From Planctomycetota bacterium (GTDB taxonomy: Bacteria; Planctomycetota; Planctomycetia; Pirellulales; UBA1268): 38,117 nucleotides of DNA. The notes below the pieces were generated by a model, which saw nothing but the letters and a program-made list of their open reading frames with translations, was not told the DNA's origin and searched no databases. The stretch covers positions 1-38,117 of the forward strand of contig QWPO01000060.1 of NCBI GenBank assembly GCA_003669255.1. Reading direction: 5' to 3'. Shown here piece by piece: positions 4,854 to 37,058 of this stretch (position 1 is its first letter; each line of letters begins with the position of its first letter). The translations under genes and the position numbers were made by a program.

Positions 4854-5008
4854 GCGGCGGGCCGGCCCCACCAAATCCTTGCCCGCGTGTCATCTCTGGC
4901 CTATTTTCGGGGACTGGCGATCGTTTGAAAGGACTGTTGCGTAAAGAGGTTTGTTCCTCCTCCTGATCCGCGTGATTGGGAGCCCACTCGGCACGACGTG
5001 ATCAACCC

Positions 5009-9306: not shown

Positions 9307-11190
9307 ATGTCGCACCAAGTAGCATCCGCCGGATCTCGTTACTGGCTGGTCGCGTCATTCACGATCGCAGCCCTCGTCGCTGGTGGCTTGCATCCCGCCG
9401 CCGCGCAGCCCATGACGACCACGGTCACTCAGCCGTTTCTGGGGGTCACGCATACCCACATTGAGACGACCAATCCGCGTCTGCTCGACATGCACCTTGT
9501 GACGGTCGACCTCAGCGTTCCCGGTATCGGCTTCGCGGTGACGCCGTCAAACGGCGCGGCCGCCGGTGAGACAGTGGGGAGGACGACGCGGCAGTTTCTC
9601 GGTGACCAGAAGGTGCAACTCGCCATCAACGGCGGCTTCTCAGCCTGGGTGAGTGGCTCCAACTACGACGCGCAGGGTCTGGCCGCCGCCAAAGGCGAGA
9701 TCTATTCGTCATTCGAGCAATACCGCACGTTCGCCCTCGACATTTCGGCCGACAATGTGGCGACGATCCTCCGCTCACCGAGCGGCACGGGCACCGCTCG
9801 TTACCCCGACATCCCGCTCTACAACACGCTGCCGGGAGAGGCCCGACTGCTCCGTGACGGTGCGATCGTGGCACCGACTGCAAACGAGACGCTGCACCCG
9901 CGGACGGCGGTTGGCCTAAGTAGCGATCAGCGGACGCTCTACCTGTTCACCGTTGACGGCCGCAACACGGGGCACAGCCTCGGTGTCACGCGGCCGGAAC
10001 TGGCTGACTTCATGCGGATGTTCGGCGCCACCGACGCGATCAACCTCGACGGCGGCGGATCGACCACGCTGGTCTTCGCCGACCCGGTCGCCCGCGTCGT
10101 CAACGTGCCGGTCGGCATCGGTGACGTGCCCGGCACGGAGCGGGTGGTGGGGAGCAACTTCGGGGTGTTCGCCCTGCCGATGCCGTCGCCCGCGGCGGTG
10201 ACCGTCAACGTGGCCGGCGGCACACAGACCCAGTGGCAGGCAGGCCAGCCGCTGATCGTCAACGCGCTCTCGCTCACCAAGTCTGGCGGCGGCACGCTGG
10301 TGCTCGACCAGGCAAACACGTTCACTGGACCAACCACGCTCACAGCGGGAACTGTGCGGCTGGCCCACGCCCGGGGCCTCGCAGCCAGCCCCGTCACAAT
10401 CCAAGCTGGCGCGACGCTGGCAGCCGTTCCCGGCGTCCACCCGCTCATCCCCAGCATCACGATCACGGGCGGGACAATCGCAGCAACAGACCTGATCATC
10501 GGGGGCACTGCGGGCATCGGCGGGCTGACGGTCTCCAGCGGAGCGATCTCCGAGTCGACCGCCGTCACGCTGCTCGGCGGCGGACGACTCTCGCTGCCAG
10601 CGGCAAATCAACAGCTATTCTCGTTTCGATCGCTCGCCATCGACGCCTCGCCGACCGGCGGCCTGCTCGACATCGGGACGAGCGTGGTTACGGTGCAGGC
10701 TGGGGGTATCGGGGCCTCCGACCTGGTGGCCGACCTCGCCGCGGGCCGTGGCGACGGCTCGTGGAACGGCACGACGGGCATCGCCTCGTCAGCCGCTCAG
10801 GGCAACCTCCGCATCGGTTGGCTGACGAGCAGCGACGACGCTCTCACCTTTACCCTGGCTGCCCCCGGAGACGTCACGCTCGACAACATCGTCGACGTGC
10901 TCGATGCGGCCACGCTGCTCTCCGCCGGCCGCTACGACAGCGGGCGGGCGGCAGGCTGGTCGGAGGGCGACTTCAACTACGACGACGCCTTCGACATCAT
11001 TGACGCCACCGACATGCTGACAACCGGCCTCTTCAACACCGGCAACTACCTGCCCGCCGCAGGAACCGTGGTGCCAGTTCCGGAACCGGGCTCCGCCGGA
11101 TGGCTGGCTGCGGTGGCCGCCATCGCAGCACGATCCAGCGGCCGAAGACGGGCCAGGTCGCGGCAGTATCAGCCCTGCGTCCAGGCGTGA
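9307..11190 (+). CDS. Phosphodiester glycosidase (DUF2233/NAGPA-like) domain fused to a PATR repeat, dockerin-like module and PEP-CTERM anchor
   Basis: Signal-like N-terminus. Residues ~45-290 carry LAINGGF...HPRTAVGLSSDQRTLYLFTVDGRNTGHSLGVTRPELADFMRMFGATDAINLDGGGSTTLVF, typical of the phosphodiester glycosidase family. From residue ~296 onward comes AAVTVNVAGGTQTQWQAG + PATR (LTKSGGGTLVLDQANTFTGPTTLTAGTVRLA) + GDVTLDNIVDVLDAATL / GDFNYDDAFDIIDATDM + VPVPEPGSAGW-helix-GRRRAR. Confidence 0.9.
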   Translation: MSHQVASAGSRYWLVASFTIAALVAGGLHPAAAQPMTTTVTQPFLGVTHTHIETTNPRLLDMHLVTVDLSVPGIGFAVTPSNGAAAGETVGRTTRQFLGDQKVQLAINGGFSAWVSGSNYDAQGLAAAKGEIYSSFEQYRTFALDISADNVATILRSPSGTGTARYPDIPLYNTLPGEARLLRDGAIVAPTANETLHPRTAVGLSSDQRTLYLFTVDGRNTGHSLGVTRPELADFMRMFGATDAINLDGGGSTTLVFADPVARVVNVPVGIGDVPGTERVVGSNFGVFALPMPSPAAVTVNVAGGTQTQWQAGQPLIVNALSLTKSGGGTLVLDQANTFTGPTTLTAGTVRLAHARGLAASPVTIQAGATLAAVPGVHPLIPSITITGGTIAATDLIIGGTAGIGGLTVSSGAISESTAVTLLGGGRLSLPAANQQLFSFRSLAIDASPTGGLLDIGTSVVTVQAGGIGASDLVADLAAGRGDGSWNGTTGIASSAAQGNLRIGWLTSSDDALTFTLAAPGDVTLDNIVDVLDAATLLSAGRYDSGRAAGWSEGDFNYDDAFDIIDATDMLTTGLFNTGNYLPAAGTVVPVPEPGSAGWLAAVAAIAARSSGRRRARSRQYQPCVQA

Positions 11191-14827: not shown

Positions 14828-15427
14828 TCAGCGGAACGTGGGGAGGGCGATTCTGCGTGACTTTGCATGCGTGGCCAGGGCCTCCTCGTACCGCTCAACG
14901 ACTGCTCGCCGATCGGCTGCCGCCTTCGCGGCCGCCTCGTCCACCGGCTTGTTGTCAGCGCCCTTGCCTCGGCCACGGCGACCACGACCACCCTCCCGCG
15001 GCATCCGAGGGGGTTCGTTGGGGTTGGCCTCCGGATTGAGGGCGAGTATCAACTCCCTCAGGGCCTTGAGCCGTTCGATCTCCGCGTCGAGAAGCTGTGG
15101 CTTCTCGGCCGCAGGCGCCGTGAAATATCGGTCGATCGCCTCCTGCCGCAGCCGCAGCCACTCCTCACCCACCGCCCGCCAGAGCTGGAAGAGATCCTCG
15201 CGGGGCATTCGATCGACGCTCGTCACCACCTGGCGAATCGCTTGATTATCGGGCTTGCCGCCATTGCCGAGCAGGCTCTTGGCGAGCGCCACCGTCTGCG
15301 GCACCTGGGTGCTCTTCGGCCAGAACCACCAGCCGGCGACCGCCGCGAGCACGGCCAGAAGGAGAATGGCGATGATCGCCACCTGACGGGACAGAGACGG
15401 GCTCGGCTCCGCAGCAGCACGCGCCAT
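14828..15427 (-). CDS. Hypothetical single-pass membrane protein (N-terminal TM helix, helical Arg/Glu-rich domain)
   Basis: ATG 15427 lies 10 nt downstream of the dehydrogenase stop. TM segment VAIIAILLLAVLAAVAGWWFW. Codon usage is GC3-rich and gene-like in this frame, unlike the overlapping shadow ORFs. I recognise no family. Confidence 0.65.
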   Translation of the reverse strand: MARAAAEPSPSLSRQVAIIAILLLAVLAAVAGWWFWPKSTQVPQTVALAKSLLGNGGKPDNQAIRQVVTSVDRMPREDLFQLWRAVGEEWLRLRQEAIDRYFTAPAAEKPQLLDAEIERLKALRELILALNPEANPNEPPRMPREGGRGRRGRGKGADNKPVDEAAAKAAADRRAVVERYEEALATHAKSRRIALPTFR

Positions 15428-15437
15428 GGCTTTGGAC

Positions 15438-16469
15438 TCACGAGGGCATTTCGACCACTGCCTTGATCACGCCGCTCGCGGGCGAGAGCAGACCCGGGAA
15501 GGCCGCGGGCAACTCTGCGAACGAGAGACGGTGGGTGATCCAGGGACGGGTGTCGATCGTACCATCCTCGATCAGCCCAATGATCCGTGCAAAATCCAGC
15601 GAAAGGGCGTTGCGGCTGGCCAGAATCGTAAGTTCCCGACGATGCATCACCGGGGCATGGGGGAACGTCACCTCCCCTTGGGTGATGCCCACGTAGACGA
15701 GCCGGCCGCCGAAGCTGCACAGGGCCAGCGCCGCCCCCATGCTCGCCGCGCTGCCGGTGGCATCCACCACGACCTCGCACATCCGGCCGTCCGTGAGATG
15801 ATTCACAGCGTCGATATCGGCGGACGTGCCCGTGGCCAGCACCGTGTCAGATACGCCCATCGACGCGCGGACAAAGTCGAGCCGCGACTGGGCCATGTCC
15901 ATCACGACCACCCGTGCTCCGGCCACCTTGGCAAACTCGAACGCCGAGAGGCCAATCGGCCCGGCACCGATGATGAGCACCGTCTCCCCGCGCTTCGGAG
16001 CCGCACGGTCAATCGCGTGGCAGCCGATTGCCAACGTCTCCACCAGCGCGTTCTGCTCGGCTGTGAGCCGCGGCGACAGATGGAGCTTACGGGCCGGTAC
16101 GGTGAACAGCGGCCGCAGGCCGCCGTCGCAGTGCACGCCAAGCGTCTGATGGTGCTCGCAGCAGTTGGTGAGGCCACGGACGCACGAGTGGCACGTCTGG
16201 CAGTTGATGTAGGGCTCGACGCAGCAGCGGTCACCGGCCTGCACGTGCGTCACGCCCGCGCCAACGGTCACCACCTCGACGCCGAGTTCGTGCCCCGGGA
16301 TCCGCGGATAACTGAAAAACGGCATCTTCCCCAGGAATCCCCCGTAGTCGGTGCCGCAGATGCCCACCGCGTGGACGCGGACCACCGCCTCGCCGGGGCC
16401 CGGCGCTGGCGGCTCAGGAACGTCGATGAACCGAAACGCCTGCGGGCGTTCGAGAAGCAGGGCCTGCAT
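15438..16469 (-). CDS. Zn-dependent medium-chain dehydrogenase, L-galactonate 5-dehydrogenase (LgoD/YjjN)-like
   Basis: VGICGTD...PFFSYPRIPGHELG (catalytic Zn site). CQTCHSCVRGLTNCC (structural Zn). LIIGAGPIGL (Rossmann). The ATG in frame at 16469 (MQALLLERP) has GGAGA ~6 nt upstream; the track start at 16508 is a GTG extension. Confidence 0.88.
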   Translation of the reverse strand: MQALLLERPQAFRFIDVPEPPAPGPGEAVVRVHAVGICGTDYGGFLGKMPFFSYPRIPGHELGVEVVTVGAGVTHVQAGDRCCVEPYINCQTCHSCVRGLTNCCEHHQTLGVHCDGGLRPLFTVPARKLHLSPRLTAEQNALVETLAIGCHAIDRAAPKRGETVLIIGAGPIGLSAFEFAKVAGARVVVMDMAQSRLDFVRASMGVSDTVLATGTSADIDAVNHLTDGRMCEVVVDATGSAASMGAALALCSFGGRLVYVGITQGEVTFPHAPVMHRRELTILASRNALSLDFARIIGLIEDGTIDTRPWITHRLSFAELPAAFPGLLSPASGVIKAVVEMPS

Positions 16470-16504
16470 GGTGTCTCCTTCGCCGCGAGTGCCGCGGCCC
16501 CGTG

Positions 16505-17335
16505 TCACTTCAGTCCGTAGAACCCCGCCGCCGTGTCGCCCCAGATCATCCGCTGCTCCGTGGTCGAAAGCCTTGAGAAGTAGTCTCGCGGAATGGCGGC
16601 CACGTCGGCGTATTCTCCGGCAAGCAAGCAGACCGGCCAGTCGCTGCCAAACATCAGCCGTTCCGGCCCGAAGGCCTCGAGCACCACGTCGAGGTAGGGC
16701 GTGAAGTCGTCGCGCTTCCAGCCCCGCCGCACCGCCTCGGTCACCATGCCCGACACCTTACAGCAGACGTTATCGTGCCGGGCGATCGCGCGAATATCAC
16801 GCCCCCAGCCGTCGATCTCGCCCGCCACGATCCGCGGCTTCGCCAGATGGTCGACCACGAACGGCTGCTCCGGGAGCAGCTCCACGAGTTCGATCGCCGC
16901 CGGCAGCTGGCTTGGGTAGAGCAGCAGATCGTAGGTCAGCCCGTGCTGGCGGAGCTGCCGCAGGCCACGAATGAAGCCCTCTCCCAGAACAAACCGCGGA
17001 TCGGGCTCATCCTGGACAACGTGCCGCACGCCGACGAACGTCGGATTCGCTGCCAACACGCGAAGATCGTCGCCGACGCGGTCGCTCCGCAGATCGACCC
17101 AGCCGACCACGCCCTTCACGAGCGGGTGTGCCTTGGCCAACGCCAGCAGCCAAAGGCTTTCCTCGACGCTCTGCCGCGCCTGCACCGCCACCGAGCCGTC
17201 GATCTGCTTTGCGGCAAGGAGCGGCTCTAGGTCGGACGGCAGATAGTCTCGCGCCAGCCGCTCCAGACCGGCGCCGATCCACGGGTATTCGGCGGCCGAG
17301 TAGTTCCAGAAGTGTTGGTGAGCGTCGATGCGCAT
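16505..17335 (-). CDS. Amidohydrolase-2 family sugar lactonase (L-fucono/L-galactono-1,5-lactonase-like)
   Basis: The N-terminal MRIDAHQHFWNY (metal-binding HxH) and overall ~276-aa size match the COG3618 lactonase group of the amidohydrolase superfamily. It is tightly packed in the operon. Confidence 0.85.
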   Translation of the reverse strand: MRIDAHQHFWNYSAAEYPWIGAGLERLARDYLPSDLEPLLAAKQIDGSVAVQARQSVEESLWLLALAKAHPLVKGVVGWVDLRSDRVGDDLRVLAANPTFVGVRHVVQDEPDPRFVLGEGFIRGLRQLRQHGLTYDLLLYPSQLPAAIELVELLPEQPFVVDHLAKPRIVAGEIDGWGRDIRAIARHDNVCCKVSGMVTEAVRRGWKRDDFTPYLDVVLEAFGPERLMFGSDWPVCLLAGEYADVAAIPRDYFSRLSTTEQRMIWGDTAAGFYGLK

Positions 17336-17340
17336 CGCGT

Positions 17341-18273
17341 TTAGTTGTTTTCCGGCAGACCTTCGACGTGGCCGATGTTCTTCACCGGGGCGAAGATCGC
17401 CTGCACGTCGCGGACGAGCTCCTCATCCAGCGGTTCCGCCGCCCACCTGGCCCACTCGCGAACGTTCGCCGGGTTGGCACTGCCCGCCACGGTCGTGGCG
17501 ATGCCGGGATTGGCAATCGAGAACTGCAGGGCGAGCTTCGCGATCGATGACCCACGGGCCCGGCAGAGGTCGGCTGCCCTCCGCGCCGCCCCCTTCACCT
17601 CCTCCGGCTCCTTGAGCCAGTGGGGAAGGGGGGCGTCGGTGAGCAGCCGAGCGCTGAAGGGCCCGGCGTTCATGACACCGATCCCCTTCGCCTCAAGATA
17701 CGCAATCGTCTCGTCGGCAAATCGCGTGTTCTGAAGCGTGTACTGGTTGTAGTTGAGCACGCAGTCGACTTCGGCCTGATCGCAGATGAACCGAAAGATC
17801 TTCTGCGGATACCCACTGAAACCGATAAACCGGATCTTGCCCTGTTCGCGAGTCTTCCGCAGCGCGGGCAGCGTCTCATCCACGATCTGCTGCATCGGCA
17901 CGAACTCGATGTCGTGGCAGAGAATGATGTCGAGGTGGTCGGTACCGAGCCGGTGGAGTGACACGTCCACGCTCTCGGCCACCCGCTTCGCCGAGAAGTC
18001 GAAGTGACTGAGGTCGTAGCGGCCCAGCTTCGTGCAGAGCAGATAGTGGTCCCGCGGGATCGACTTGAGAGCCACGCCGAGCAGCACCTCGCTCATGCCA
18101 CGGCCATAAAAGGGGCTCGTGTCGATCAGGTTCAAGCCACAGTCGAGGGCGGCCTTCACGCTGCCGAGCGCCTCGTCGAGTGTGACCGAGCGAAACTCCT
18201 GGCCGAGCGAACTCGCCCCAAAGGACAGGATCGGCACCTGCAGACCCGTCTTGCCAAGTGATCTGGTCTTCAT
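17341..18273 (-). CDS. Aldo/keto reductase, L-galactose / L-fucose (D-threo-aldose) 1-dehydrogenase-like
   Basis: MKTRSLGKTGLQVPILSFGASSLG...DTSPFYGRG...CTKLGRY..FDFSAKRV..S...L..DHLDIILCHDIEF...IVDETLPALRKTREQGKIRFIGFSG...APVKN follows the pattern I recall for plant and bacterial L-galactose dehydrogenase-type AKRs. The ATG in frame at 18273 lies 10 nt after the upstream stop. Confidence 0.88.
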   Translation of the reverse strand: MKTRSLGKTGLQVPILSFGASSLGQEFRSVTLDEALGSVKAALDCGLNLIDTSPFYGRGMSEVLLGVALKSIPRDHYLLCTKLGRYDLSHFDFSAKRVAESVDVSLHRLGTDHLDIILCHDIEFVPMQQIVDETLPALRKTREQGKIRFIGFSGYPQKIFRFICDQAEVDCVLNYNQYTLQNTRFADETIAYLEAKGIGVMNAGPFSARLLTDAPLPHWLKEPEEVKGAARRAADLCRARGSSIAKLALQFSIANPGIATTVAGSANPANVREWARWAAEPLDEELVRDVQAIFAPVKNIGHVEGLPENN

Positions 18274-18283
18274 ATCGGTCCTC

Positions 18284-18742
18284 TCACGAAAACGTGCGGC
18301 AGCCGACGGAGAGCAGGAGATTCGCCCACGGCTGAGTGTCGGCCGTCTGAATGGTGAGCACATGGTCGTCCGACGCGACGGCCGCGTAGAAATCCCACTT
18401 CACGATCGGGGCGACTTCGCAGGGCGACTTCGCCGCGGCAAGGATCCGGCGGTACTCCGCCCAGACCGGCGGATCTCCGGGGGTCGCGGCGGCGTAGGAA
18501 TCGGCCCGATCGACGCCCATCGTGAACACCTCGTCGATCTGCACGGCCGCGAGCACCGCCTCGAAGACCTGTGCCACCGTCGGCAGACCGGGCACGAGCT
18601 GGAGCGACACGAGCTCAGCCCGCGGGCCCCGCTTGTTGAGGGCGGGATAGTTGCCGTCGGCGATCAACACCTTCGAGTGGTGGCCCGATCGAGCAAGGAC
18701 ACGGAGGATGTCCGGGTGGAGCAGGGGGCCGTTGAGCATCAA
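18284..18742 (-). CDS. RbsD/FucU family sugar mutarotase
   Basis: MLNGPLLHPDILRVLARSGHHSKVLIADGNYP is the characteristic N-terminal RbsD/FucU motif (GH..xx...D.N.P). Size ~150 aa. Confidence 0.85.
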   Translation of the reverse strand: MMLNGPLLHPDILRVLARSGHHSKVLIADGNYPALNKRGPRAELVSLQLVPGLPTVAQVFEAVLAAVQIDEVFTMGVDRADSYAAATPGDPPVWAEYRRILAAAKSPCEVAPIVKWDFYAAVASDDHVLTIQTADTQPWANLLLSVGCRTFS

Positions 18743-18757
18743 AGGGTCTCCGCTGGA

Positions 18758-19573
18758 TCAGGCCGTGAGGTGCCGCCTGAGGCTCGCGATCGTCCTGGCC
18801 GCCGCCTCCGAGGCCGTCGGCAGGGGAAACACCTCGGCCGACAGCCAGCCTTCATACTGGATCGCCCTCAAAGCCGCCACGACGTGCCCGGCATCGGTGT
18901 GCCCAAACCCCATCGCCCGGCGGTTGGAGTCGGCCCAGTGAACGTGGCCCAGCCGTGGCCCGCAGGCCACGAGCGCCCCGGCGATGGTCTCCTCTTCGAT
19001 GTTCATGTGAAACAGATCGCAGAGGATGTTTATCGCGTCGAGGCCGTTGGCTTGAAGGAACGTAGCCGCCTCCGCCTGACGATTGAAGAGATCGGTCTCG
19101 TAGCGGTTGAGCGGCTCATAAAGGAGAGACTGGCCGTGGCGGGCGGCGCGGGCTCCGAGTTCGCCCAGGGCGTCGGCCAGCATCGAAAGGGCCGACTCCC
19201 GGGAGACGTCGCCACTTGTTCGGCCCTGCATCGACCCGATGATCGCCGGAGCCCCGAGCACGCCGGCCGCATCGACGATCGAGGCGATGAAGGCCCGTGC
19301 CCGCAGTCGTACGTCTCCATTGGCGTGACAGAGCGAGAGGCCGTGCTTCACCCAGCCGGCTCCCGTGCCGACGGCCGCGAGGCTCAGGTGATGGGCCTCC
19401 AGCAGCGGTCGCACGACCGAGGCCGCCACCTCGTCGGCATCGGCAGGAAAGATCTCGACGCCGTCGAAGCCATGCTCGGCGGCCATCCGGCATCCTGCCG
19501 CTAGGCCGTCGTGGAATACGAACGGCCCGCGCCTCACTTCCGGCACCAGGCAGATCGTGATCGCCGACTTCAC
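18758..19573 (-). CDS. Sugar phosphate isomerase/epimerase (xylose isomerase-like TIM barrel, AP_endonuc_2 fold)
   Basis: GFDGVEIF, LLYEPLNRYETDL, NILCDLFHMNIEE, GHVHWADSNR and GWLSAEVFP form the typical metal-ligand pattern of this fold. The likely start is GTG at 19573, overlapping the upstream TGA (GTGA). The 76 upstream codons in the track ORF are Arg/Gly/Pro-rich and overlap the UxaE-like gene. Confidence 0.85.
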   Translation of the reverse strand: MKSAITICLVPEVRRGPFVFHDGLAAGCRMAAEHGFDGVEIFPADADEVAASVVRPLLEAHHLSLAAVGTGAGWVKHGLSLCHANGDVRLRARAFIASIVDAAGVLGAPAIIGSMQGRTSGDVSRESALSMLADALGELGARAARHGQSLLYEPLNRYETDLFNRQAEAATFLQANGLDAINILCDLFHMNIEEETIAGALVACGPRLGHVHWADSNRRAMGFGHTDAGHVVAALRAIQYEGWLSAEVFPLPTASEAAARTIASLRRHLTA

Positions 19574-20832
19574 GCCCGGACCCTTGTGGACGCGAACAGC
19601 GGCCGCAGGTGCCGGTCGTAGATGTTCTCGGTGACCTGTTTCGCCACGACGTCGCGGTTGGCCACCAGCAGGTCGGTGTATCGCTGCCCCTGCTTCGCCG
19701 CCACCTTGAACGACACGTGGACGAGTTGCCGCATGTGCGGATTGAAGGCGGGGTTTGCGGGCACGTGCCGCAGGGCGGCCGCCAGCTGAGAACCGCTCCA
19801 CGAAGCCACCTCCGCCGGGGCGGGCAGTTTTGCCCGGTCGATGTCGATCACCGTGGCGTAGGGAGCGCAGAACTCATCGACATGGTCGTAGGCATAGGCA
19901 TAGATCTCCTTGGCAAGCGCCAGGCCATCGCCCTCCGCTTCGGCCAAGCCAATCATCTCCTCCAGCCAGGTCGTGCCGGCCGTCTTGAGATGCAGCCCCG
20001 CACCCGTCCGCTCCACGATCCGGCGAATGATGGGGTAGAGCGAGAACTTGTCGCTGCCGCTGTGCACGGAGAGCTTGAGGTTCTTGGGCAGGCCATAGCG
20101 GTCGGCCGCGTAGGCGAGCACCGCCACGTCGTCAGAAAACTCTTTCTCGAACCCGGCGAGATCACCGACGTAGTCCACGCCCTTGTTGAACCGGCCGGTG
20201 AACTTGGGCGCGATCGTCTGGAGCGGCACGCCCTCGTCGGCGAGCAGGGCAAGGATCACGAGGAGTTCCGGCGGCGTCTGCGCCGCGTCGGTCTCGTCCA
20301 TGCTCACCTCGATGGCCACGCCGTCGCCATGCTTCGCGCGGATGTGCCGAAAGATCTCGCCGGCCTCGCGGCACGCCAGCAGGTAACTCTGAGCCACCGT
20401 GCCAGACGTCTGTGCCGAGAGCGGCACCGGGACGGCGATGCCTGGGATCGTGAGCGGCGCGCGCAGCTCAGGGTGTCGGGCGAGAAATGCGGCGACGTCG
20501 GCCTCACTCGCCGGCTTGCCGATCGAGTCGGCAACGTCGATCGTGAAAAAGTCGCTCGAGTCGAGGAACCTGTCGACCGTCTCGAGGCGAATATGGTCGG
20601 CGTCGACGAACCACGGATGCGGCCACTTCCGCGCCGCGACTGCGGCACTCGCCGCATCCCGAACGCTCGCCGGCTCGCTACCGATGAAGGAGTGTTCGCG
20701 GTTCGACTTGTTCCACACCGGCGACACGACGACACCGTCCGCGGCGAGCCGCTCGAAGGCGGCCAGTTGAGCCTCGGCCTGGTGCGCGAATCGGTCACCG
20801 ACGCCAAACGTGAATCGTGGGAGTGTGAGCAT
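19570..20832 (-). CDS. Tagaturonate/fructuronate epimerase (UxaE)-like protein
   Basis: FGVGDRFAHQ, WFVDADHIRLETV and DFFTIDVADSIG resemble the UxaE family pattern (FGTGDR..., ADADH..., FT.FTID). The ATG in frame at 20832 (MLTLPRFTFG) is the first gene after a 423-bp gap. Confidence 0.7.
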   Translation of the reverse strand: MLTLPRFTFGVGDRFAHQAEAQLAAFERLAADGVVVSPVWNKSNREHSFIGSEPASVRDAASAAVAARKWPHPWFVDADHIRLETVDRFLDSSDFFTIDVADSIGKPASEADVAAFLARHPELRAPLTIPGIAVPVPLSAQTSGTVAQSYLLACREAGEIFRHIRAKHGDGVAIEVSMDETDAAQTPPELLVILALLADEGVPLQTIAPKFTGRFNKGVDYVGDLAGFEKEFSDDVAVLAYAADRYGLPKNLKLSVHSGSDKFSLYPIIRRIVERTGAGLHLKTAGTTWLEEMIGLAEAEGDGLALAKEIYAYAYDHVDEFCAPYATVIDIDRAKLPAPAEVASWSGSQLAAALRHVPANPAFNPHMRQLVHVSFKVAAKQGQRYTDLLVANRDVVAKQVTENIYDRHLRPLFASTRVRA

Positions 20833-20990
20833 GCGGAGAGAATACCGCGGCTGAAGACCGCTTGATACCGTTCTGCGCAACAGATTCGACTACGGTTTTC
20901 TGCGGTTCTGATGCGTGCTGCTCCGTCCCAACGCGCCAAACCCGGCTGCGGGACGGGGCGCGGGTAGCCCCGAGCCACCACGGGATGCCT

Positions 20991-21011
20991 GTGCAGGTTG
21001 ACAACCTGCAC
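20991..21011. promoter_or_regulatory. Perfect 21-bp palindrome upstream of the sugar-acid operon (candidate operator)
   Basis: GTGCAGGTTG-A-CAACCTGCAC has 10-bp perfect arms, ~160 nt upstream of the UxaE-like start. Its core CAGGTT..AACCTG resembles the hairpins at 14756-14810. Confidence 0.3.
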
Positions 21012-21156
21012 CTACGTGTGGGGCACGCACTCAGCGAGGGGCTGCCAGTGCCCCGGGAGCCGGGCTATGGAAGCTAGCGTAGCCACGACCAATCCGCCTG
21101 CGGCGGATCGGTGCCCGGCGAAGCGCAGCGAACATGCAGTGAGCGTCAGGCAGGAT

Positions 21157-21176
21157 GCCGGACGCGAACGTCCGGC
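21157..21176 (-). terminator. Candidate stem-loop terminator after the GNAT gene
   Basis: GCCGGACG-cgaa-CGTCCGGC is a perfect 8-bp GC-rich stem. On the transcribed (minus) strand the loop reads UUCG. It sits ~80 nt downstream of the GNAT stop (21256). No U-tract. Confidence 0.3.
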
Positions 21177-21255
21177 GATGGGGCATTGGCGGCCCCGAGC
21201 CACGCACGACGCCCTTAACCCGGAGCCGACGCACAGCTCGTCACCCGGACCGGTA

Positions 21256-21804
21256 TCACCCGTCCGTGGGATCCGCCGGCGTCGGCAGGAGGAGTTGCCA
21301 GAACTCGAGGTCGAGCCAGCGGCCGAACTTGAAGCCGGCCTCACGGACCGTGCCGCAGCAGCGGAAGCCGAGCGAACTGTGCAGGGCCACGCTCGCCACG
21401 TTCGTCGCATCGATGCCGGCGATGATCATGTGGATGTCTCGCTTCTTCGCGGCAACGATCAGCGCCTGAAGAAGCTGCCGCCCAACGCCCTCGCCACGAT
21501 ACTGCTCGTCGACGTAGACCGAGTGCTCGATGGAGTATTTGTACGCCGCCCGCGGTCGAAACGGGCCCCAGGTGGCAAAGCCAGCAAGCACTCCCGGCTC
21601 CCACTCGATGCCAAGCACGGGCACATCAGCCCGCTCTCGGTCGGCAAACCACTCTCGCATCACCGCTTCGGTCCGCGGGGCGTATTCGTAGAGTGACGTC
21701 GAGTTGAGGATCGCGTCGTTGTAGATCGACTGGATCGCCGGGAGGTGGGCGGCGGTGCAGGTGATCACCTCGCGGCGCGGTGGGGCAGGCTTCTTGCGGG
21801 GCAT
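21256..21804 (-). CDS. GNAT N-acetyltransferase, phosphinothricin/methionine-sulfoximine acetyltransferase (PAT)-like
   Basis: IYNDAILNSTSLYEYAPRT...WF, VYVDEQYRGEGVGRQLLQALI (acetyl-CoA motif A), NVASVALHSSLGFRCCG and FKFGRWLDLEFWQL are the typical PAT-family layout. Confidence 0.88.
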   Translation of the reverse strand: MPRKKPAPPRREVITCTAAHLPAIQSIYNDAILNSTSLYEYAPRTEAVMREWFADRERADVPVLGIEWEPGVLAGFATWGPFRPRAAYKYSIEHSVYVDEQYRGEGVGRQLLQALIVAAKKRDIHMIIAGIDATNVASVALHSSLGFRCCGTVREAGFKFGRWLDLEFWQLLLPTPADPTDG

Positions 21805-21810
21805 CGGCGA

Positions 21811-23565
21811 CTAACGGCGGGAGGCGGAGGGGGTGACGGGCGGTGGAGTGAGCAGCGAGACCACAATGAGGACGAGGAAGCCGAGCGGGATCGTCACCAG
21901 CCCCGGCTGGCTGAACGGGGTGAGGGCCAGATCGCGCGAGATTCCGTAGACCTTTTCGAAGGTGTCGGCCGACAGGAGAATCCATGCCAGCGACGCCAGC
22001 ATACCCACCGTGACGGCTGCGATGATCCCCTGCCGCGTCGTCCGCGGCCAGAAGAGCAGCATCACGAGGGCCGGCAGGTTGGCGCTGGCCGCGATGTTGA
22101 ACGCCCAGCCCACCAGGAAGCTCACGTTGAAGTTGCGGAATACGATCCCGAGCACCATCGCCACGATCCCGAGACCGACGGCCGCCAGCTTGCCCACGCG
22201 GATCTTCTCGTGGTCGTTCATCCGCACGCCCAACACGTTCTCCACGAGGTCGTGAGCCACCGCCCCGCTGCCGGCCATGATCAGCCCGCTGACGGTGCCG
22301 AGGACGGTCGTGAACGCGATCGCCGAGATCACGGCGAAGAGCGTGTTGCTGAAGCTCTTCGCCAGGAGCGGGGCCGCCATGTTGGTGTCGGTGGGGTCGA
22401 GGGCACCGGAAGTCATCGCGCCGAGGCCGAGGAACAGCGTGAGCACGTAGAATACACCGATGGCGGCGATGCCCACCACGGTGCTCTTCCTTGCCGCAGC
22501 GGCGTCCTTGACGGTGTAGTAGCGGATCAGGATGTGCGGCAGCGACGCGGTGCCGCAGAACAGGGCCAGCATCAGGCTCGCAAAGTCGAGTCGGTCGGCG
22601 AGTTTTCCCGTGGTGAGACCCTTGAAGTATCCGCCGGGCTTGAGCAGGTCTGAGCCCTGCTTCTCGACGGGAGAATACGTGGTGTGTAATCCATCAGCAT
22701 CCACGTGTTTCTTTGCAGACCACGTGACGATCGTCGAATCCTCGAGCGCCGAGAGGTAGGCAAGCGGCCCGAGTGGACCGGTTGTCCGCGCATCGCCGAA
22801 TCGCTCCGGCAGCCTGAGGATCGTGCCCACCGGCCGCAGGTCGTGGTCCTTCGACTGTGGCGCACCGTCCACGAGCACGGCGCCGTCGGGCTGTACCGTC
22901 TTCACCTGCGGGGCGAGGTTCTCTTCACCGGAGCGACCGGCGTTGACGACCAATCCACGCCCCAGGATCAGCACCGTGAGCACGCCGCAGAAGAAGACGA
23001 GCAGCGACCCCTTGATGAACTGCACCCAAGTCGTCGAGACCATTCCCGCTGTGACCACGATCAGCGTGACCGTCACACCCACGAGGATCACGCCCGCCTC
23101 GTGCGGCAGGCCGAGCAGCGGCTTGATGAGTGAGCCGGCGCCAACCATCTGCGGGATCAGGTAGAAGATGCTCACCACCAGCGTCGAGATCGCCACGGCG
23201 AGCTTGATGCCGCGGCTGTTGAACCGGCTGTCGAGGGCGTCGGCAAACGTGAACTTGCCGAGGGCCTTGATCGGCTCGGCGATCACAAACAGCGCCACGA
23301 TCCAGCCGGCCAGGAAGCCAATGGAGTAGAGAAAGCCGTCGTAGCCCGAGAACGCGATCATCCCGCAGATGCCGAGAAACGACGCGGCGGAGAGGTAGTC
23401 GCCGGCGAAGGCGATCCCGTTGACGAACCAGTGGATCTGACCGTGGGCGGCGTAGTAGCCGCTGGCCGACTGCCCCTTGCGTCCCAGCCAGAACGAGAGT
23501 GCGAGCACGCCAAGCACGAAGGCGGCAAAGATGGCGACGGCGACGAGCGAGGTCTGGTGGATCAT
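21811..23565 (-). CDS. actP: Cation/acetate symporter (sodium:solute symporter family)
   Basis: GYYAAHGQIHWFVNGIAFAGDYLSAASFLGICGMIAFSGYDGFLYSIGFLAGW, YLIPQMVGAG and GTASLPHILIRYYTV closely follow the ActP pattern. Multiple TM helices. A small membrane protein gene precedes it, as in yjcH-actP. Confidence 0.9.
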   Translation of the reverse strand: MIHQTSLVAVAIFAAFVLGVLALSFWLGRKGQSASGYYAAHGQIHWFVNGIAFAGDYLSAASFLGICGMIAFSGYDGFLYSIGFLAGWIVALFVIAEPIKALGKFTFADALDSRFNSRGIKLAVAISTLVVSIFYLIPQMVGAGSLIKPLLGLPHEAGVILVGVTVTLIVVTAGMVSTTWVQFIKGSLLVFFCGVLTVLILGRGLVVNAGRSGEENLAPQVKTVQPDGAVLVDGAPQSKDHDLRPVGTILRLPERFGDARTTGPLGPLAYLSALEDSTIVTWSAKKHVDADGLHTTYSPVEKQGSDLLKPGGYFKGLTTGKLADRLDFASLMLALFCGTASLPHILIRYYTVKDAAAARKSTVVGIAAIGVFYVLTLFLGLGAMTSGALDPTDTNMAAPLLAKSFSNTLFAVISAIAFTTVLGTVSGLIMAGSGAVAHDLVENVLGVRMNDHEKIRVGKLAAVGLGIVAMVLGIVFRNFNVSFLVGWAFNIAASANLPALVMLLFWPRTTRQGIIAAVTVGMLASLAWILLSADTFEKVYGISRDLALTPFSQPGLVTIPLGFLVLIVVSLLTPPPVTPSASRR

Positions 23566-23578
23566 CGTGGCGGCTCCC

Positions 23579-23824
23579 TCAGCGTTCTGCTCTGAGGATC
23601 ATGTAGGCGACTGCCAGCCCGAAGGCGGCGGCGATCAACCCCATGCCGTAGACGATCGCGAGGTTCACGCCGCCAAACGGCCGCAGTGACAGCAGGTCGG
23701 GCCGCACGAGCACCAGCGCCATGAAGCCGCCGTAGAGGGCCACGTAGACCCAAAACAGGGCGAGTCCCACCGGGCTGGCCGCCGTGCCGTCGCCAGACTG
23801 TCGAGGATCGTGATCGGGCGCCAT
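23579..23824 (-). CDS. Small two-TM membrane protein, DUF485 (YjcH)-like partner of ActP
   Basis: The in-frame ATG at 23824 has AAGGGGGAG just upstream. The 81-aa product has two hydrophobic helices (LALFWVYVALYGGFMALVLV, LAIVYGMGLIAAAFGLAVAYMIL). It ends 13 nt before the actP start. The upstream part of the track ORF (to 24037) overlaps the sulfatase gene and is Arg/Gly-rich. Confidence 0.7.
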   Translation of the reverse strand: MAPDHDPRQSGDGTAASPVGLALFWVYVALYGGFMALVLVRPDLLSLRPFGGVNLAIVYGMGLIAAAFGLAVAYMILRAER

Positions 23825-23904: not shown

Positions 23905-26900
23905 TCAGGCCGCTGGCTTTACCACTCGCCGCTTTGCCGGCCTGGAGTCCCCGGCCGGCTCCTCGACGACCGGATAGAGAAACACCGGCTTCTCGACGGT
24001 TCCTGCCGGGCGGCGGCCCGGAGCATGCGGGCCGCACAGTTCGGCCGCCATCCGCTCGGCTAGCAGGCGGAGCCGGACGACGGTGTCGGGATGCTCAGTC
24101 GCGACGTCTACGGTCTCGCCGACGTCGGCTTTGAGGTCATAGAGCCGGGGGTTCACCAGTGAGGCCTCGGCGGCGGTGTTCTCCGCGCCTGTGTCATTCG
24201 GCTGCGGCGCGATTACCAGTTTCCAGCGGCCGTCGCGAACCGCTTGGAGAGCTGTTCCCTTGAAATAGTAGTGGGCCTCACGGGCCGATTCGTGGCTCGT
24301 CCCCATGAGCAGGCCCGTGATGTCGCGGCCGTCGATCGTGGGCGTGGCGGCCACCTCGCCGCCGGCCAGGCCGACGAACGTCGGGAGGAGATCGATCGTG
24401 CCAGCAAAGGCATCGCATGTGCTCCCAGCCTGCACTCGCCCTGGCCACCAGGCGATCGTCGGCACCCGGACGCCTCCTTCCCAAGTGCTCGCCTTCGCTC
24501 CCCGCAGCGGACCGACCGACCCGCCATCCTTTCCCTTCGCCGCCCACGGGCCGTTGTCGCTCGTAAAGATCACGAGTGTGTCGCCGTCGAGCCCATCCTC
24601 CCGGAGCGTATCGAGGATCCTGCCCACGCTCCAATCAACTTCCTCAACCCAGTCGCCAAACCGCCCATTGCCGCTCTTTCCCCGAAATCGCTCGCCGGGA
24701 GCGAGCGGCACATGGACTGCCGTGTGCGGCACGTACAAGAAGAACGGTTTTCCTTTCGAATCGCGGATGAAGGCCACAGCCTCGTCGGTGCACCGTTCCA
24801 CGATCCCGCGCTGCATCTCGTCGGTGAGCAGCTCGACGACGCGATCGTCGCGAACGAGCGGCACCACTCGCTCACCCGTCTCCGCGGACTTTTTCTGCAT
24901 GTCGTTGGAGTAGGGGATCCCGAGGTAGCGGTCAAAGCCCTGGCGGCAGGGAAGGAACTCGCGCTGGTCACCGAGGTGCCACTTGCCGAAGCAGGCGGTC
25001 GCATAGCCAAGCGACTTGAGACGCTCGGCCATCGTGACCTCCGTGGGGTTCAAGCCATTCCTTCCAGCCGGAAAGAACACGCCCGGCACCGAGACCCGCA
25101 CCCCGTAGCAGCCGGTGAGAAGCTGGGCCCGCGACACCGAGCAGACGGGCGCGGCGTAGAAACTCGTGAGCTTCATACCCTCGCAGGCCATCCGGTCGAG
25201 GTGGGGCGTTTTTTGTTTCGTGGCCCCGAACGGTCCGATGTCGCCATAGCCAAGGTCGTCGATGAGCACGACCACGACGTTCGGCGGCCGTACCGCGGTG
25301 CGGGTCGCCAGCGGGTCGCCGGCACGATGCTGCGCCGCGGCGAGCGTCGCCTCGAGATCGCGGCGACGACCGGCGACGGCCGGATCGGCGGCGCGATCCC
25401 GCTGCTCGCCTGGGTCGCTCGCGACCTCGAAGACCTGCGTCACCTGTGACCGGGGATAGGCGATCAGCTTCCAGTCGGGAGTGACGACCGCCCGCTGGAC
25501 GTTCTTGTAGGCAAGGAGAATCGATTCGCGAATCGCTGCCTGCTCGCCCCGGACAACCGGCGCCAGACTCAGCCCCTCGCTGTCCCTCGGAGCCGGCACG
25601 CCGGCGAGGTCTCCAAGCGTGGCCGTCAGGTCGAAGAGGTAGGCCAAGGCATCCACCCGGCGGCCTGCGGGCACGCCAGGCCCCGCCATCACCGCCGGCG
25701 CGCGCATGGAGTGTTCATAGAGGTTCTGCTTTCCGAGGAGCCCGTGGCTGCCGAGTGCCAACCCCTGATCGGCGGCAAATAGCACGAGCGTGTCGTCGAG
25801 GCGACCCTTCTTCTCAAGGGCCGCGAGCACCCTGCCTATCTGATCGTCCATCCCTTCGATGAGGGCGTAGTAGTCGGCGAGTTCCGCTGAGATCCGCTGC
25901 GGCGCCAGCGGCCGTGGCAGCGTCTTTTCGTCACGGACCGCGAGGTCGCCGTTGTCGAACGGGTGCTCGGGAAGGAAGTTTGCTGGCGGTGGCGGCTCGT
26001 GACCGTCGTACCGGCGGCGGAACTCCCGCTGTGGCTGCCGCGGGTCGTGCGGCGCGGTGAACGCGCACCAAGCGAAGAAGGGCTCGTCACCGAGGTCTTC
26101 GATGAAGGCCTCGGCAGCGCCACCGATGATCGCCGACGAGTGGCGATCGGTCGCGGCGTCGGGCTCGGGCTCGGCGTGGCCGCGGAACGACACCGTCGGC
26201 AGACCGAAGTGGCCGTGCATCCCGCCGTAGAACACGTGGCTCCCCTCGGCAAAGCAACGGACGAGCGACTCCTTTCCATTGTGCCACTTGCCGGTGGCGA
26301 AGGTCCGGTAGCCGGCCCGCTCGAAGGCCTCGGGCCACGTGTCGCAACCCCCGAGCTGCTCGCGGACGCGAAACAATGACCGGCCCGACAAGAGCATCGC
26401 CCGGCTCGGCACGCAGACGGCCCCCTGCATCGCCCCCATGCAGTACGCCCGGTCGAAGGATGTGCCTCGGGTCACGAGCGCATCGATCGTAGGCGTGCGG
26501 ATCGCCGCGTTACCAAGCGCGTGGATCGTGTCGGCCCGCATGTCGTCGGCGAGGAAGACGATCACGCTCGGCCGGCACCTGGCTTCTGCGGATTCGAAAC
26601 GCTCGCCGTCTCCAGGCTTTTCGGCGATTGGCCGAGACGGAGCGGATGGCCCGTTCGCCGCATCGGCGAACGGGAGCGGCCAGTCGGGATGCGGAACGTG
26701 CTCGCGGTCGAGGATCAACCGCATCCGTTCAGCCACCGCAGGGTTTCGACCTGTGACGTTCGTCGTCTCCGACGGATCGGCCGCCAGGTCGTAGAGTTCG
26801 ATCGGCCCTGGCTCAGCAGGCTTGTTCGGACCCACGGCCCGGCGGATCGCCTTCCAACGGCCGTCCACCGCCGCCTGCCACTTGCCTTCGGTGAGCTCGC

Positions 26901-28170: not shown

Positions 28171-28211
28171 CACCTCCTCCACCTGATCCGACGAGATCCA
28201 ATGATACGGCG

Positions 28212-31200: not shown

Positions 31201-31592
31201 ACGTGCCATTTTCCCGAGTGGTAGGAGCGGTAGCCCGCGGGCGCGAGCAGGGCGGGAAGAAGCCGCGCCCAGGCGGGCCGCGCCGCCTTCACGCCACCGT
31301 CGCCTCCCGGCAGCGCATCGCGGCGGATTGCCTGCGCGTAGTAGCCCGTCAGTAGTGCCGCGCGAGTGGGCCAGCAGCGGGCGGTGTTGTAGGCGTTCGT
31401 ATAGCGGAGCCCTCCCGAAGCGAGCCGGTCGAGGTTCGGTGTGTCGATCTCGCCACCCTGGCAGCCAAGGTCGGAGAAGCCAAGATCGTCGGCCAGGATC
31501 ACGACCACGTTGGGCGGGGCAGCCGGCACCGAACCCACCACCGCCGTGGCGGCAACCAGGGCGGCGATGGCGGCTGACCACTGGCCTCGCAT
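28212..31592 (-). CDS. Bi-modular sulfatase with a Lys-rich linker and an extra ~105-aa C-terminal domain of unknown function
   Basis: Signal peptide MRGQWSAAIAALVAATAVVGSVPA. Module 1: VILADDLGFSD, CWPTRAALLTGYY (Cys codon 31374-31376), GKWH, LSDNG. Module 2: VMTDDQGYGD, CAPTRAALLTGRH (29826-29828), GKWHLG, TTDNG. The tail runs from ~residue 995 (nt ~28215-28610). GGAAGGAG lies 6 nt upstream of the ATG. Confidence 0.9.
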   Translation of the reverse strand: MRGQWSAAIAALVAATAVVGSVPAAPPNVVVILADDLGFSDLGCQGGEIDTPNLDRLASGGLRYTNAYNTARCWPTRAALLTGYYAQAIRRDALPGGDGGVKAARPAWARLLPALLAPAGYRSYHSGKWHVDGDPLAQGFHRSLDISAIGQSNYFDPAGAAGMPAASRADDFYATTAIGGHAVACLAEHSRNHSGTPFFHYVAFTAPHFPLQAPPDLIAKTRDRYRPGWDELRQARVARLKEYGIVTTPPAAIERDVGPPYSFPDALKALGPGEVERPLPWETLTPEQREFQATKMAIHAAMVEGMDREVGRIVRQLEAMQALDETLILFLSDNGASAEIMVRGEGHDRSAPPGSRKTFLCLGPGWSSCCNAPFRRHKTWVHEGGIATPWIVHWPRGISARGELRHQPVHVVDVVPTALELAGVPLPREHDGATVPPLHGRSFAKSLASPAAPPAHDALWWCHEGHRAARVGDMKLVAVKEQPWELYDLATDRCETNDLAAAQPEQVRALDAEWSRIADECRALAAPTSAKERAGKAARWPPNIVYVMTDDQGYGDIAAHGNPVIRTPNLDRLYRESVRLTEFHASPTCAPTRAALLTGRHEFHSGVTHTIDERERLARSATTLPDLLRRAGYTTGIFGKWHLGDEDAYQPGRRGFDRSFIHGAGGIGQTYPGSCGDVEGNRYVDPVIRSDGEFVATTGYCTDVFFDEALAWMRRCRKNETPFFCMITSNAPHAPLDCPAGSDGVYLDLLEKAGVGDPKQRAQIAKFYGMIENIDTNVGRLLAELERLGMAGDTLVVFTTDNGTANGSSVFNAGMRGAKGTVWRGGTRVPSFWRWKGSLPEGVDVPAVTAHLDVLPTLCEIAGVEVPPEVAAKIEGRSLVPLLRDATAEWPDRPLVTHQGRWKRGQAAASQFANVRVREGRWSLVNVANSPDGWELYDVAADPGEVRDVADGNPDMVRRLAEFYDRWWAGVQAELVNENLDGPAENPFKVAYRRQQESTPAKKPAVRKSAGKKRKGAGKEETPAESFPPPTFAEFLAARSRLLPEIARYSPYALVSADDPPVYLVYASPPDLGKPAKDPTHSANLGAKLKERLDAVGVDCELAYPGSKPRYIAVKDYLCDVLAPRD

Positions 31593-36925: not shown

Positions 36926-37058
36926 TGTCGTAGACCCCATGCGCGACACCACGGCCGACAGCCTTGTCGGCAACCCGTCCAGGGACGAGATTGAGACAGT
37001 ATGCGGGCAACGACGGCCCGCTGCATCACCCCTGAGTTCACCCCGGAGACGCTCCACT

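Follow-up and report, generated by a model that had tools for sequence, protein, structure and literature searches.

Contig QWPO01000060.1 of the Planctomycetota assembly GCA_003669255.1, the whole 38,117 nt of which is referred to here as the window, contains six open reading frames (ORFs) packed on the minus strand within positions 15438–20832. In the order in which they would be transcribed, these encode a putative short UxaE-family epimerase of 420 amino acids (aa) (19570–20832; Pfam UxaE, PF16257, 172 bits against a gathering cutoff of 27.1), a putative IolO/LguG-type TIM barrel protein with the ketose 3-epimerase fold (271 aa; 18758–19573; Pfam xylose-isomerase-like TIM barrel, 133 bits), a divergent RbsD/FucU-family protein (151 aa; 18284–18739; Pfam RbsD_FucU, 101 bits), an aldo-keto reductase (AKR) assigned to the L-galactose 1-dehydrogenase clade (310 aa; 17341–18273; Pfam Aldo_ket_red, 167 bits), a putative Amidohydrolase_2 (cog3618-type) sugar 1,5-lactonase (276 aa; 16505–17335; Pfam, 157 bits) and a putative Zn-dependent MDR dehydrogenase of the LgoD type (343 aa; 15438–16469; Pfam ADH_N and ADH_zinc_N). 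Direct reading of the sequence shows a GTGA overlap, in which the GTG start of the TIM barrel gene (19573–19571) lies over the TGA stop of the UxaE-family gene (19572–19570). Between the genes that follow there are 18 nt (or 15, should the TTG at 18742 be the start codon), 10, 5 and 35 nt. The ORF list and this reading confirm the initial annotation, which had described six tightly packed genes with gaps of 5–35 nt and one GTGA overlap, and the six protein families that it had named are those found by Pfam.

The GTG start that gives a TIM barrel protein of 271 aa is backed by 23 homologs, whose N-termini do not vary. An exact-sequence look-up with the 271 aa protein gave zero matches, as a start further downstream is chosen by many gene callers; a look-up with the lactonase did succeed. 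The same six genes are present in independent gene calls on near-identical metagenome contigs. The six-gene arrangement is far beyond chance, since the set is found again in numerous genomes belonging to several phyla.

The operon is best read as an oxidative route without phosphorylation, by which L-galactose, and probably L-gluco-configured hexoses too, would be catabolized to D-fructuronate. The RbsD/FucU-like protein would provide the right ring form or anomer. The AKR would oxidize L-galactose (or L-glucose) at C1 to the 1,5-lactone, which the amidohydrolase-2 lactonase would open to L-galactonate (or L-gluconate). Oxidation at C5 by the LgoD-type Zn-dehydrogenase would then convert L-galactonate to D-tagaturonate, and L-gluconate to 5-keto-L-gluconate. 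The IolO/LguG-type TIM barrel protein, by epimerizing the carbon adjacent to the keto group, would turn 5-keto-L-gluconate into D-tagaturonate as well, and the short UxaE-family enzyme would convert D-tagaturonate to D-fructuronate. From there, UxuB and UxuA would lead to 2-keto-3-deoxygluconate (KDG) and on to KdgK and Eda, presumably encoded elsewhere in the genome. Each step is based on homology, conserved catalytic residues, the published biochemistry of relatives and gene context. The whole chain is held with moderate confidence, on balance in its favour; the upper three steps are more probable than the chain, and the UxaE step and downstream route less so. The core that the initial annotation had proposed, from L-galactose through the lactone, L-galactonate and D-tagaturonate to D-fructuronate, is supported by homology and by conservation of the gene neighbourhood.

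A dual pathway for L-glucose and L-galactose, encoded by lguA, lguD, lguG and other genes, has been described in Luteolibacter sp. LG18; in this strain the AKR LguA oxidizes L-galactose and L-glucose, not L-fucose, and the Zn-dehydrogenase LguD carries out C5 oxidation of both L-galactonate and L-gluconate (Yachida et al., 2025; PMC12632266). The top five PDB matches of the window AKR are all L-galactose dehydrogenases (E values 5.9e-85 to 2.7e-72), with the next family at 1.6e-31. Identity is 45% to PDB 9w6y and 46% to the plant L-galactose dehydrogenase 7ezi, and the catalytic tetrad D51, Y56, K82 and H120 shows conservation of 95% or more across 35 homologs. Of 15 N-terminal positions, 14 agree between 9w6y (MEYRKLGNTGLDVSV) and the peptide published for LguA (METRKLGNTGLDVSV), and 9w6y serves here as a proxy for LguA in identity values. 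No exact match to the published LG18 N-terminal peptides occurs in any fetched locus, and LG18 was not among the homologs listed in a search seeded with the ortholog from a Luteolibacter metagenome-assembled genome (MAG). The AKR is predicted to be a member of the L-galactose 1-dehydrogenase clade.

The lactonase matches PDB 4dlf (BmulJ_04915), an L-fucono/L-galactono-1,5-lactonase, at 2.6e-62, a clear homology that assigns its family but not its exact substrate. The Zn-dehydrogenase is 37% identical over 340 aa to LgoD, the L-galactonate oxidoreductase of E. coli (E=7e-73). Residues C38, H60, E61 and E144, conserved in 34 homologs, would be its Zn ligands, and the protein is predicted to be an L-galactonate/L-gluconate 5-dehydrogenase.

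The TIM barrel protein had been left without an assigned step in the initial annotation, as a possibly novel epimerase. This does not hold, as it has a known relative in IolO (TM0416) and belongs to a family that includes LguG. The 5-keto-L-gluconate epimerase model IolO (NF041099) is its best NCBIfam match at 211 bits, 113 bits ahead of the next model, psicose epimerase (98 bits), and its best PDB match is Thermotoga TM0416/IolO (8.6e-40; 37.5% identity). Among 23 homologs there is no variation at the metal-binding and catalytic positions E153, D186, H212 and E247. LguG, for its part, has 35% identity to IolO, turns 5-keto-L-gluconate into D-tagaturonate and is encoded by a gene that adjoins an 'rbsD' gene (PMC12632266). 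With the TIM barrel protein placed in the IolO/LguG family, the operon can be read as a dual L-gluco/L-galacto route.

A scan with a TIM barrel alignment against one genome per GTDB species gave 80 loci, whose labels place them in Planctomycetota, Verrucomicrobiota, Bacteroidota and Bryobacterales (Acidobacteriota). Neighbouring genes were scored by tblastn with the window proteins, and loci with 5 kb or more to either side, 49 in all, were taken as having full flanks. Among these 49, the Zn-dehydrogenase is the commonest partner of the TIM barrel gene (32 loci, 65%), followed by the AKR (30, 61%), the FucU-family gene (23), a UxaE-type gene (21, 43%) and the lactonase (18). Across these clusters, conservation of the LguG-type gene matches that of the dehydrogenases. 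The complete six-gene set is found in 10/80 loci, from Planctomycetota and Verrucomicrobiota, and the arrangement is widespread among the sampled loci of these two phyla.

The cultured Luteolibacter algae (GCA_042683045.1) encodes all six, in the order FucU, TIM barrel, AKR, Zn-dehydrogenase, UxaE and lactonase, with a divergently oriented GntR/FCD regulator gene identified by Pfam. Members of the Akkermansiaceae, including the cultured Haloferula chungangensis CCUG 61920, typically have TIM barrel, AKR, Zn-dehydrogenase and UxaE genes, with or without the lactonase. An ORF upstream of the Haloferula cluster contains a GntR-like helix–turn–helix motif, as judged by eye, and the genes downstream look unrelated. 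In three Bacteroidota loci (L077, L079 and L083) the order is AKR, Zn-dehydrogenase and TIM barrel, and in two Bryobacterales loci the Zn-dehydrogenase and TIM barrel genes lie between sulfatase genes. A related cluster is also present in a cultured organism with a complete genome, Planctomycetales bacterium ZRK34 (CP050848.1; locus L070, 2536–11269), where the order is lactonase, UxaE (canonical-like), GH29 alpha-L-fucosidase, FucP permease, AKR, Zn-dehydrogenase, TIM barrel and FucU.

The best PDB matches of the UxaE-like protein are Cohnella UxaE, 6ilb (1e-31), and 9lhu. At 420 aa it lacks the full-length architecture of canonical UxaE proteins (~480–500 aa) and represents a shorter subtype. 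The catalytic residues of Cohnella UxaE, which acts by a retro-aldol mechanism, are Glu126 and Asp159 (PMC11194214). E46 and D79-H80 of the window protein align with these two residues, with conservation of 95% or more across 32 cluster-linked homologs. The protein is predicted to interconvert D-tagaturonate and D-fructuronate by C4 epimerization, through retro-aldol and aldol steps.

This window type of UxaE is found in 27 clusters, and a second subtype occupies the same place in eight. The second subtype is ~30% identical to that of the window, and the three members compared are 41–43% identical to Cohnella UxaE; no cluster contains both subtypes. In two loci without UxaE, a UxaB-like gene of the mannitol dehydrogenase family adjoins the TIM barrel gene, and one locus (L041) has the order AKR, Zn-dehydrogenase, UxaB-like, TIM barrel, FucU and PfkB kinase, an exit of the LG18 type. 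UxaE and UxaB-like genes never occur together in the stretches examined. A short-chain dehydrogenase/reductase (SDR) is encoded within or beside five clusters, directly adjoining UxaE in two. The best NCBIfam model of the SDR that was scanned is D-mannonate oxidoreductase, a suggestive match at 235 bits against a cutoff of 281; the SDRs of sister clusters also score as gluconate 5-dehydrogenase-like. Because a canonical-type UxaE or a UxaB-like reductase sits in the same place in sister clusters, the comparison supports UxaE as the putative functional exit from D-tagaturonate, with an exit step that would be interchangeable between clusters.

For the RbsD/FucU protein, superfamily membership is the part of the assignment that holds on the Pfam match. 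The NCBIfam scores are 30 bits for FucU (cutoff 141) and 33 bits for RbsD (cutoff 93), and PDB FucU structures match with E values of about 1e-6. A sugar mutarotase or pyranase of uncertain substrate is predicted. The gene directly adjoins the TIM barrel gene in most loci, the AKR is missing from the 10 kb flanks of some loci, and the gene follows the TIM barrel more closely than it does the AKR; at least five full-flank loci have the TIM barrel and FucU genes with neither AKR nor Zn-dehydrogenase in the flanks. In three Bacteroidota loci (L050, L077 and L083) a 113 aa ORF beside the TIM barrel gene takes the place of the FucU-family gene. The only one scanned, at 10843–11184 of L050, belongs to the RhaM family (L-rhamnose mutarotase; Pfam, 87 bits), in a locus with neither AKR nor Zn-dehydrogenase inside 10 kb. 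It looks like a non-orthologous replacement, which would tie mutarotase function to the epimerase. Because the pairing with the TIM barrel recurs, including in LG18, and because of the RhaM-type substitution, the RbsD/FucU protein may serve the epimerase step in place of the first step. A more tentative and rather unlikely idea is that it opens or interconverts ring forms of the keto-uronate and not of the free sugar. The initial annotation had made it a mutarotase feeding the three-step route: the superfamily stands, and the feeding role is weakened by the scores of ~30 bits and by a gene that tracks the TIM barrel over the AKR.

Several observations weigh against the route to D-fructuronate or against parts of it. 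The curated equivalog scores are all under their cutoffs: the TIM barrel protein with the IolO model (cutoff 300), the lactonase with the L-fucono-1,5-lactonase model NF052480 (292 bits; cutoff 400) and the Zn-dehydrogenase with its best NCBIfam model, the LgoD-like PRK10083 (182 bits; cutoff 376). The specificity of the AKR cannot be read from its sequence, because it is only 45% identical to the LguA-like 9w6y. The 30% identity of the UxaE-like protein to Cohnella UxaE extends over 343 aa, in an alignment that begins at about residue 93 of the latter, so that ~85 N-terminal residues are lacking. E. coli UxuA, UxuB, UxaA, UxaB, UxaC, KdgK and Eda have no match in the window by tblastn (E<=1e-8, at least 50% query coverage), and Pfam scans of the large window ORFs found no genes of these types; the initial annotation had likewise placed UxuB, UxuA, KdgK and KdgA outside the window. 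Genes of these kinds near the 80 clusters amount to a single Eda, a weak KdgK-like match, one UxaC and two that are UxaB-like, and uxuA, uxaA, kdgK and eda practically never adjoin them. No obvious sugar transporter is encoded in the window, the neighbouring SSF symporter being ActP/MctC-like. The strong conservation of the LguG-type gene is also without a natural rationale, because L-glucose is not known in nature. This conservation suggests an unrecognized natural substrate of L-gluco configuration or another source of 5-keto-L-gluconate.

If the initial annotation is taken strictly, the operon would serve L-galactose only and the TIM barrel protein would perform another step, unrelated to 5-keto-L-gluconate. 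Deletion of lguG in LG18 leaves growth on L-galactose unaffected and L-glucose has no known natural occurrence (PMC12632266), both of which would suit this reading, as would an IolO score under the equivalog cutoff. However, IolO/TM0416 is by far the nearest relative (211 vs 98 bits), at an identity like that between LguG and IolO; the TIM barrel gene is most tightly linked to the Zn-dehydrogenase, whose product the epimerase would use; and the rbsD–lguG pairing of LG18 recurs in the window. Restriction to L-galactose is considered unlikely. The same chemistry could also have a different exit, for instance reduction of D-tagaturonate or 5-keto-L-gluconate by an enzyme (UxaB/LguC-type, or one of a D-idonate route) whose gene lies elsewhere, with the UxaE-like protein acting on another substrate or as an aldolase. 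Against this stand the conservation of both UxaE catalytic residues, the canonical-type UxaE in the same slot of sister clusters and the separate occurrence of UxaE and UxaB-like genes in the stretches examined. It would accommodate the divergence and short N-terminus of the window protein, the retro-aldol mechanism of UxaE (PMC11194214), the lack of both uxuA and uxuB nearby and the gluconate 5-dehydrogenase-like scores of the sister-cluster SDRs. Such an exit is judged slightly less probable again than use of L-galactose alone.

A new type of L-fucose route would lead from L-fucose through L-fuconate to 5-keto-L-fuconate, and then through two epimerases or aldolase-like enzymes. Several features are compatible with it: the nearest characterized relative of the lactonase is an L-fucono-1,5-lactonase, the mutarotase-family protein is FucU-like, and the sulfatase-rich surroundings would suit degradation of sulfated fucan. 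The GH29 alpha-L-fucosidase and FucP permease (504 bits, above cutoff) of the ZRK34 cluster would also fit L-fucose, with low probability. FucP and GH29 enzymes also take L-galactose and L-galactosides, and this was counted against L-fucose as the substrate. The nearest relatives of the AKR are, moreover, all L-galactose dehydrogenases, of which the characterized LguA is inactive on L-fucose (PMC12632266), and IolO/LguG and UxaE act on six-carbon keto-uronates. Fuconate dehydratase and the downstream L-fucose enzymes are absent from the window, in agreement with the initial annotation, which had argued against a classical L-fucose pathway. An L-fucose route is judged unlikely. Still less credible is a fragment of a Thermotoga-type myo-inositol pathway, consisting of an IolM-like dehydrogenase, IolO and UxaE. 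The Zn-dehydrogenase does score 164 bits on the IolM model, and IolO and UxaE reportedly act one after the other in Thermotoga (Rodionova et al. 2013). The LgoD-type model nonetheless outscores IolM for a protein with 37% identity to LgoD, and the AKR, lactonase and mutarotase would be left without a role. This inositol reading was rejected, since homologs of IolG and IolN are absent from the operon.

The preferred route to D-fructuronate has counterparts in several described systems. In Bacteroides vulgatus, the dehydrogenase Bvu0219, the lactonase Bvu0220 and the L-galactonate 5-dehydrogenase Bvu0222 were reportedly characterized by Hobbs et al. (2014). The chemistry from L-galactose to the 1,5-lactone, L-galactonate and D-tagaturonate would be the same in the window, with the same three protein families. 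The B. vulgatus cluster is said to lack an IolO-type epimerase and UxaE, and to pass D-tagaturonate onward via UxaB and UxaA. For Thermotoga maritima, Rodionova et al. reportedly described, in 2012 and 2013, IolO (TM0416) and UxaE in inositol and hexuronate catabolism. The same consecutive epimerases, from 5-keto-L-gluconate to D-tagaturonate and D-fructuronate, are predicted here; the 5-keto-L-gluconate of Thermotoga comes from myo-inositol via IolG, IolM and IolN, whereas that of the window would come from an L-hexose via the AKR, lactonase and LgoD-type enzymes, and the window UxaE is a shorter, divergent subtype. The LgoD/LgoT/LgoR system of E. coli is similar in LgoD, at 37% identity, and in the GntR/FCD regulator gene beside the Luteolibacter algae cluster; it starts at L-galactonate and not at the free sugar, and uses UxaB and UxaA, and the window has no LgoT-type transporter. 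The non-phosphorylative L-fucose pathways of Burkholderia (BmulJ_04915) and Xanthomonas (the FucD route) share the lactonase family and a FucU-family protein with the window, which differs in its L-galactose-type AKR and in the absence of fuconate dehydratase, 2-keto-3-deoxy-L-fuconate (KDF) dehydrogenase and hydrolase. The L-fucose dehydrogenase of Burkholderia is reportedly an SDR.

Luteolibacter sp. LG18 and the window host both belong to the PVC superphylum, and both have an AKR 1-dehydrogenase, a Zn-dependent aldonate 5-dehydrogenase and an IolO-type epimerase encoded beside an RbsD/FucU-family gene. In LG18, D-tagaturonate is reduced and dehydrated by LguC and LguB (UxaB/UxaA-like), a 2-keto-3-deoxy-6-phosphogluconate (KDPG) aldolase is encoded in the cluster, and lguG lies outside the lgu cluster. 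In the window, by comparison, a single operon carries all upper-pathway genes, those for a lactonase and a UxaE-family epimerase among them, and homologs of LguB, LguC, LguE and LguH are absent. The LG18-type exit (UxaB/UxaA-type LguC/LguB, KDG kinase and KDPG aldolase) is thus missing from the window, which has the UxaE-family gene instead. The LG18 paper makes no mention of a lactonase, UxaE or fructuronate (PMC12632266). The window operon appears to join the upper pathway of B. vulgatus and Luteolibacter to the IolO–UxaE segment of Thermotoga. The novelty lies in how the genes are combined and in the exit through UxaE; the enzyme families and the chemistry have been published (2014, 2012–2013 and 2025). 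No description of the six-gene combination with a UxaE exit, or of its spread over these phyla, was found in the searchable literature.

Upstream of the UxaE-family gene lies an intergenic region (20833–21255, minus strand), the presumed promoter/operator. It includes a perfect 10+1+10 palindrome, GTGCAGGTTG-T-CAACCTGCAC, at 20991–21011, ~160 nt 5' of the UxaE start. The palindrome is kept in all six near-identical contigs and is not found in L094, whose TIM barrel protein is 80% identical. It is a candidate operator, with a GT..AC core that resembles the GntR-family binding type; no regulator gene is present within the window, although a divergently oriented GntR/FCD gene accompanies related clusters in Verrucomicrobiota. 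The region also has a strain-variable insertion of 177 nt (~21019–21195), between the GNAT and UxaE genes, which is present in the window and L004 only. It is absent from the otherwise near-identical L001, L002 and L005, and L003 and L006 share the gene spacing of those contigs. The insertion has a predicted RNA fold of -96.4 kcal/mol (z=-4.15) and complementary ends (GGGGC/GCCCC), and a 42 nt piece of it occurs once among all fetched loci. It could be an element like a miniature inverted-repeat transposable element (MITE) or a repetitive extragenic palindromic (REP) sequence, or a strain-specific regulatory insert. A scan for sigma-70-like promoters found none, terminator-like sites were at background level, and an Rfam search of the window gave no match.

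Directly upstream of this region is a group of three minus-strand genes (21256–23824) encoding a GNAT acetyltransferase (21256–21804), an ActP/MctC-like SSF symporter (21811–23565; 429 bits with the monocarboxylate transporter model, short of its cutoff of 670) and a DUF485 protein (23579–23824). The trio is retained in relatives at ~80% identity and may import an organic acid. Downstream of the operon, orf199 (14828–15427, minus strand) starts 10 nt past the Zn-dehydrogenase stop and encodes a 199 aa protein with an N-terminal membrane anchor and a charged, probably helical remainder; it has no Pfam match. It stays with the cluster in the relative with an 80% identical TIM barrel protein, where the DNA beyond differs. 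It is a possible seventh co-transcribed gene, and its membership of the pathway is doubtful. As orf199 and the SSF, DUF485 and GNAT genes are absent from all 80 GTDB loci and are kept only in close relatives, they were excluded as pathway members.

The window has a G+C content of 66%, and the rest of its Pfam content includes DUF1559, PEP-CTERM, PATR repeats and three giant multi-domain sulfatases, which points to a planctomycete that degrades sulfated glycans. The sulfatase genes encode very large proteins on the minus strand (23905–28182, 1425 aa; 28212–31592, 1126 aa; 34145–37168, 1007 aa), each with two or three sulfatase domains and SGSH_C domains. Sulfatase genes flank the orthologous cluster elsewhere, for example in the Bryobacterales loci L059 and L080 and the Pirellulaceae locus L076. 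On the plus strand, a 1440 aa protein with an F5/8 type C (discoidin) domain (4976–9298) and a 627 aa protein with NAGPA (phosphodiester glycosidase) and PATR domains (9307–11190) may belong to a system that processes glycans at the surface. Among named homologs, the nearest come from MAGs of Planctomycetia and Pirellulales, and only planctomycete proteins with generic names came up when homologs of the Zn-dehydrogenase were sought. The population from which the window derives is listed in 264 blocks of a metagenome collection index.

L-Galactose is available from red-algal galactans, some plant cell-wall polysaccharides and other glycans, and its bacterial catabolism is not known to have been characterized in more than two systems. 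The operon and its relatives predict a third route, with a UxaE exit to D-fructuronate, in one transcription unit. L-Glucose catabolism was previously reported in only two strains, and LG18-like pathways only in a few Luteolibacter species (PMC12632266). The loci described here extend likely LguA/LguD/LguG-type chemistry well past Luteolibacter, with partial sets in Bacteroidota and Acidobacteriota (Bryobacterales). Six proteins gain testable names, where public-database labels are generic ('TIM barrel protein', 'sugar phosphate isomerase/epimerase', 'alcohol dehydrogenase' and 'bacteriochlorophyllide A dehydrogenase'), and strain ZRK34 offers the pathway, a glycosidase and a transporter together in a cultured organism. 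The wide conservation of an epimerase needed only for the 'unnatural' L-glucose becomes a sharper question. A wider L-hexose funnel can tentatively be proposed, although it is judged unlikely, in which L-galactose, L-glucose and possibly L-gulose would converge on D-fructuronate via a 3-epimerase (IolO/LguG type) and a 4-epimerase (UxaE type) that act on keto-uronates from a single, loosely specific trio of AKR, lactonase and dehydrogenase. With an LguG-type gene conserved to the same degree as the dehydrogenases, and with several clusters lying among sulfatase genes, 5-keto-L-gluconate or a sugar of L-gluco configuration would then have an unrecognized natural source, such as sulfated glycans of algae or bacteria.

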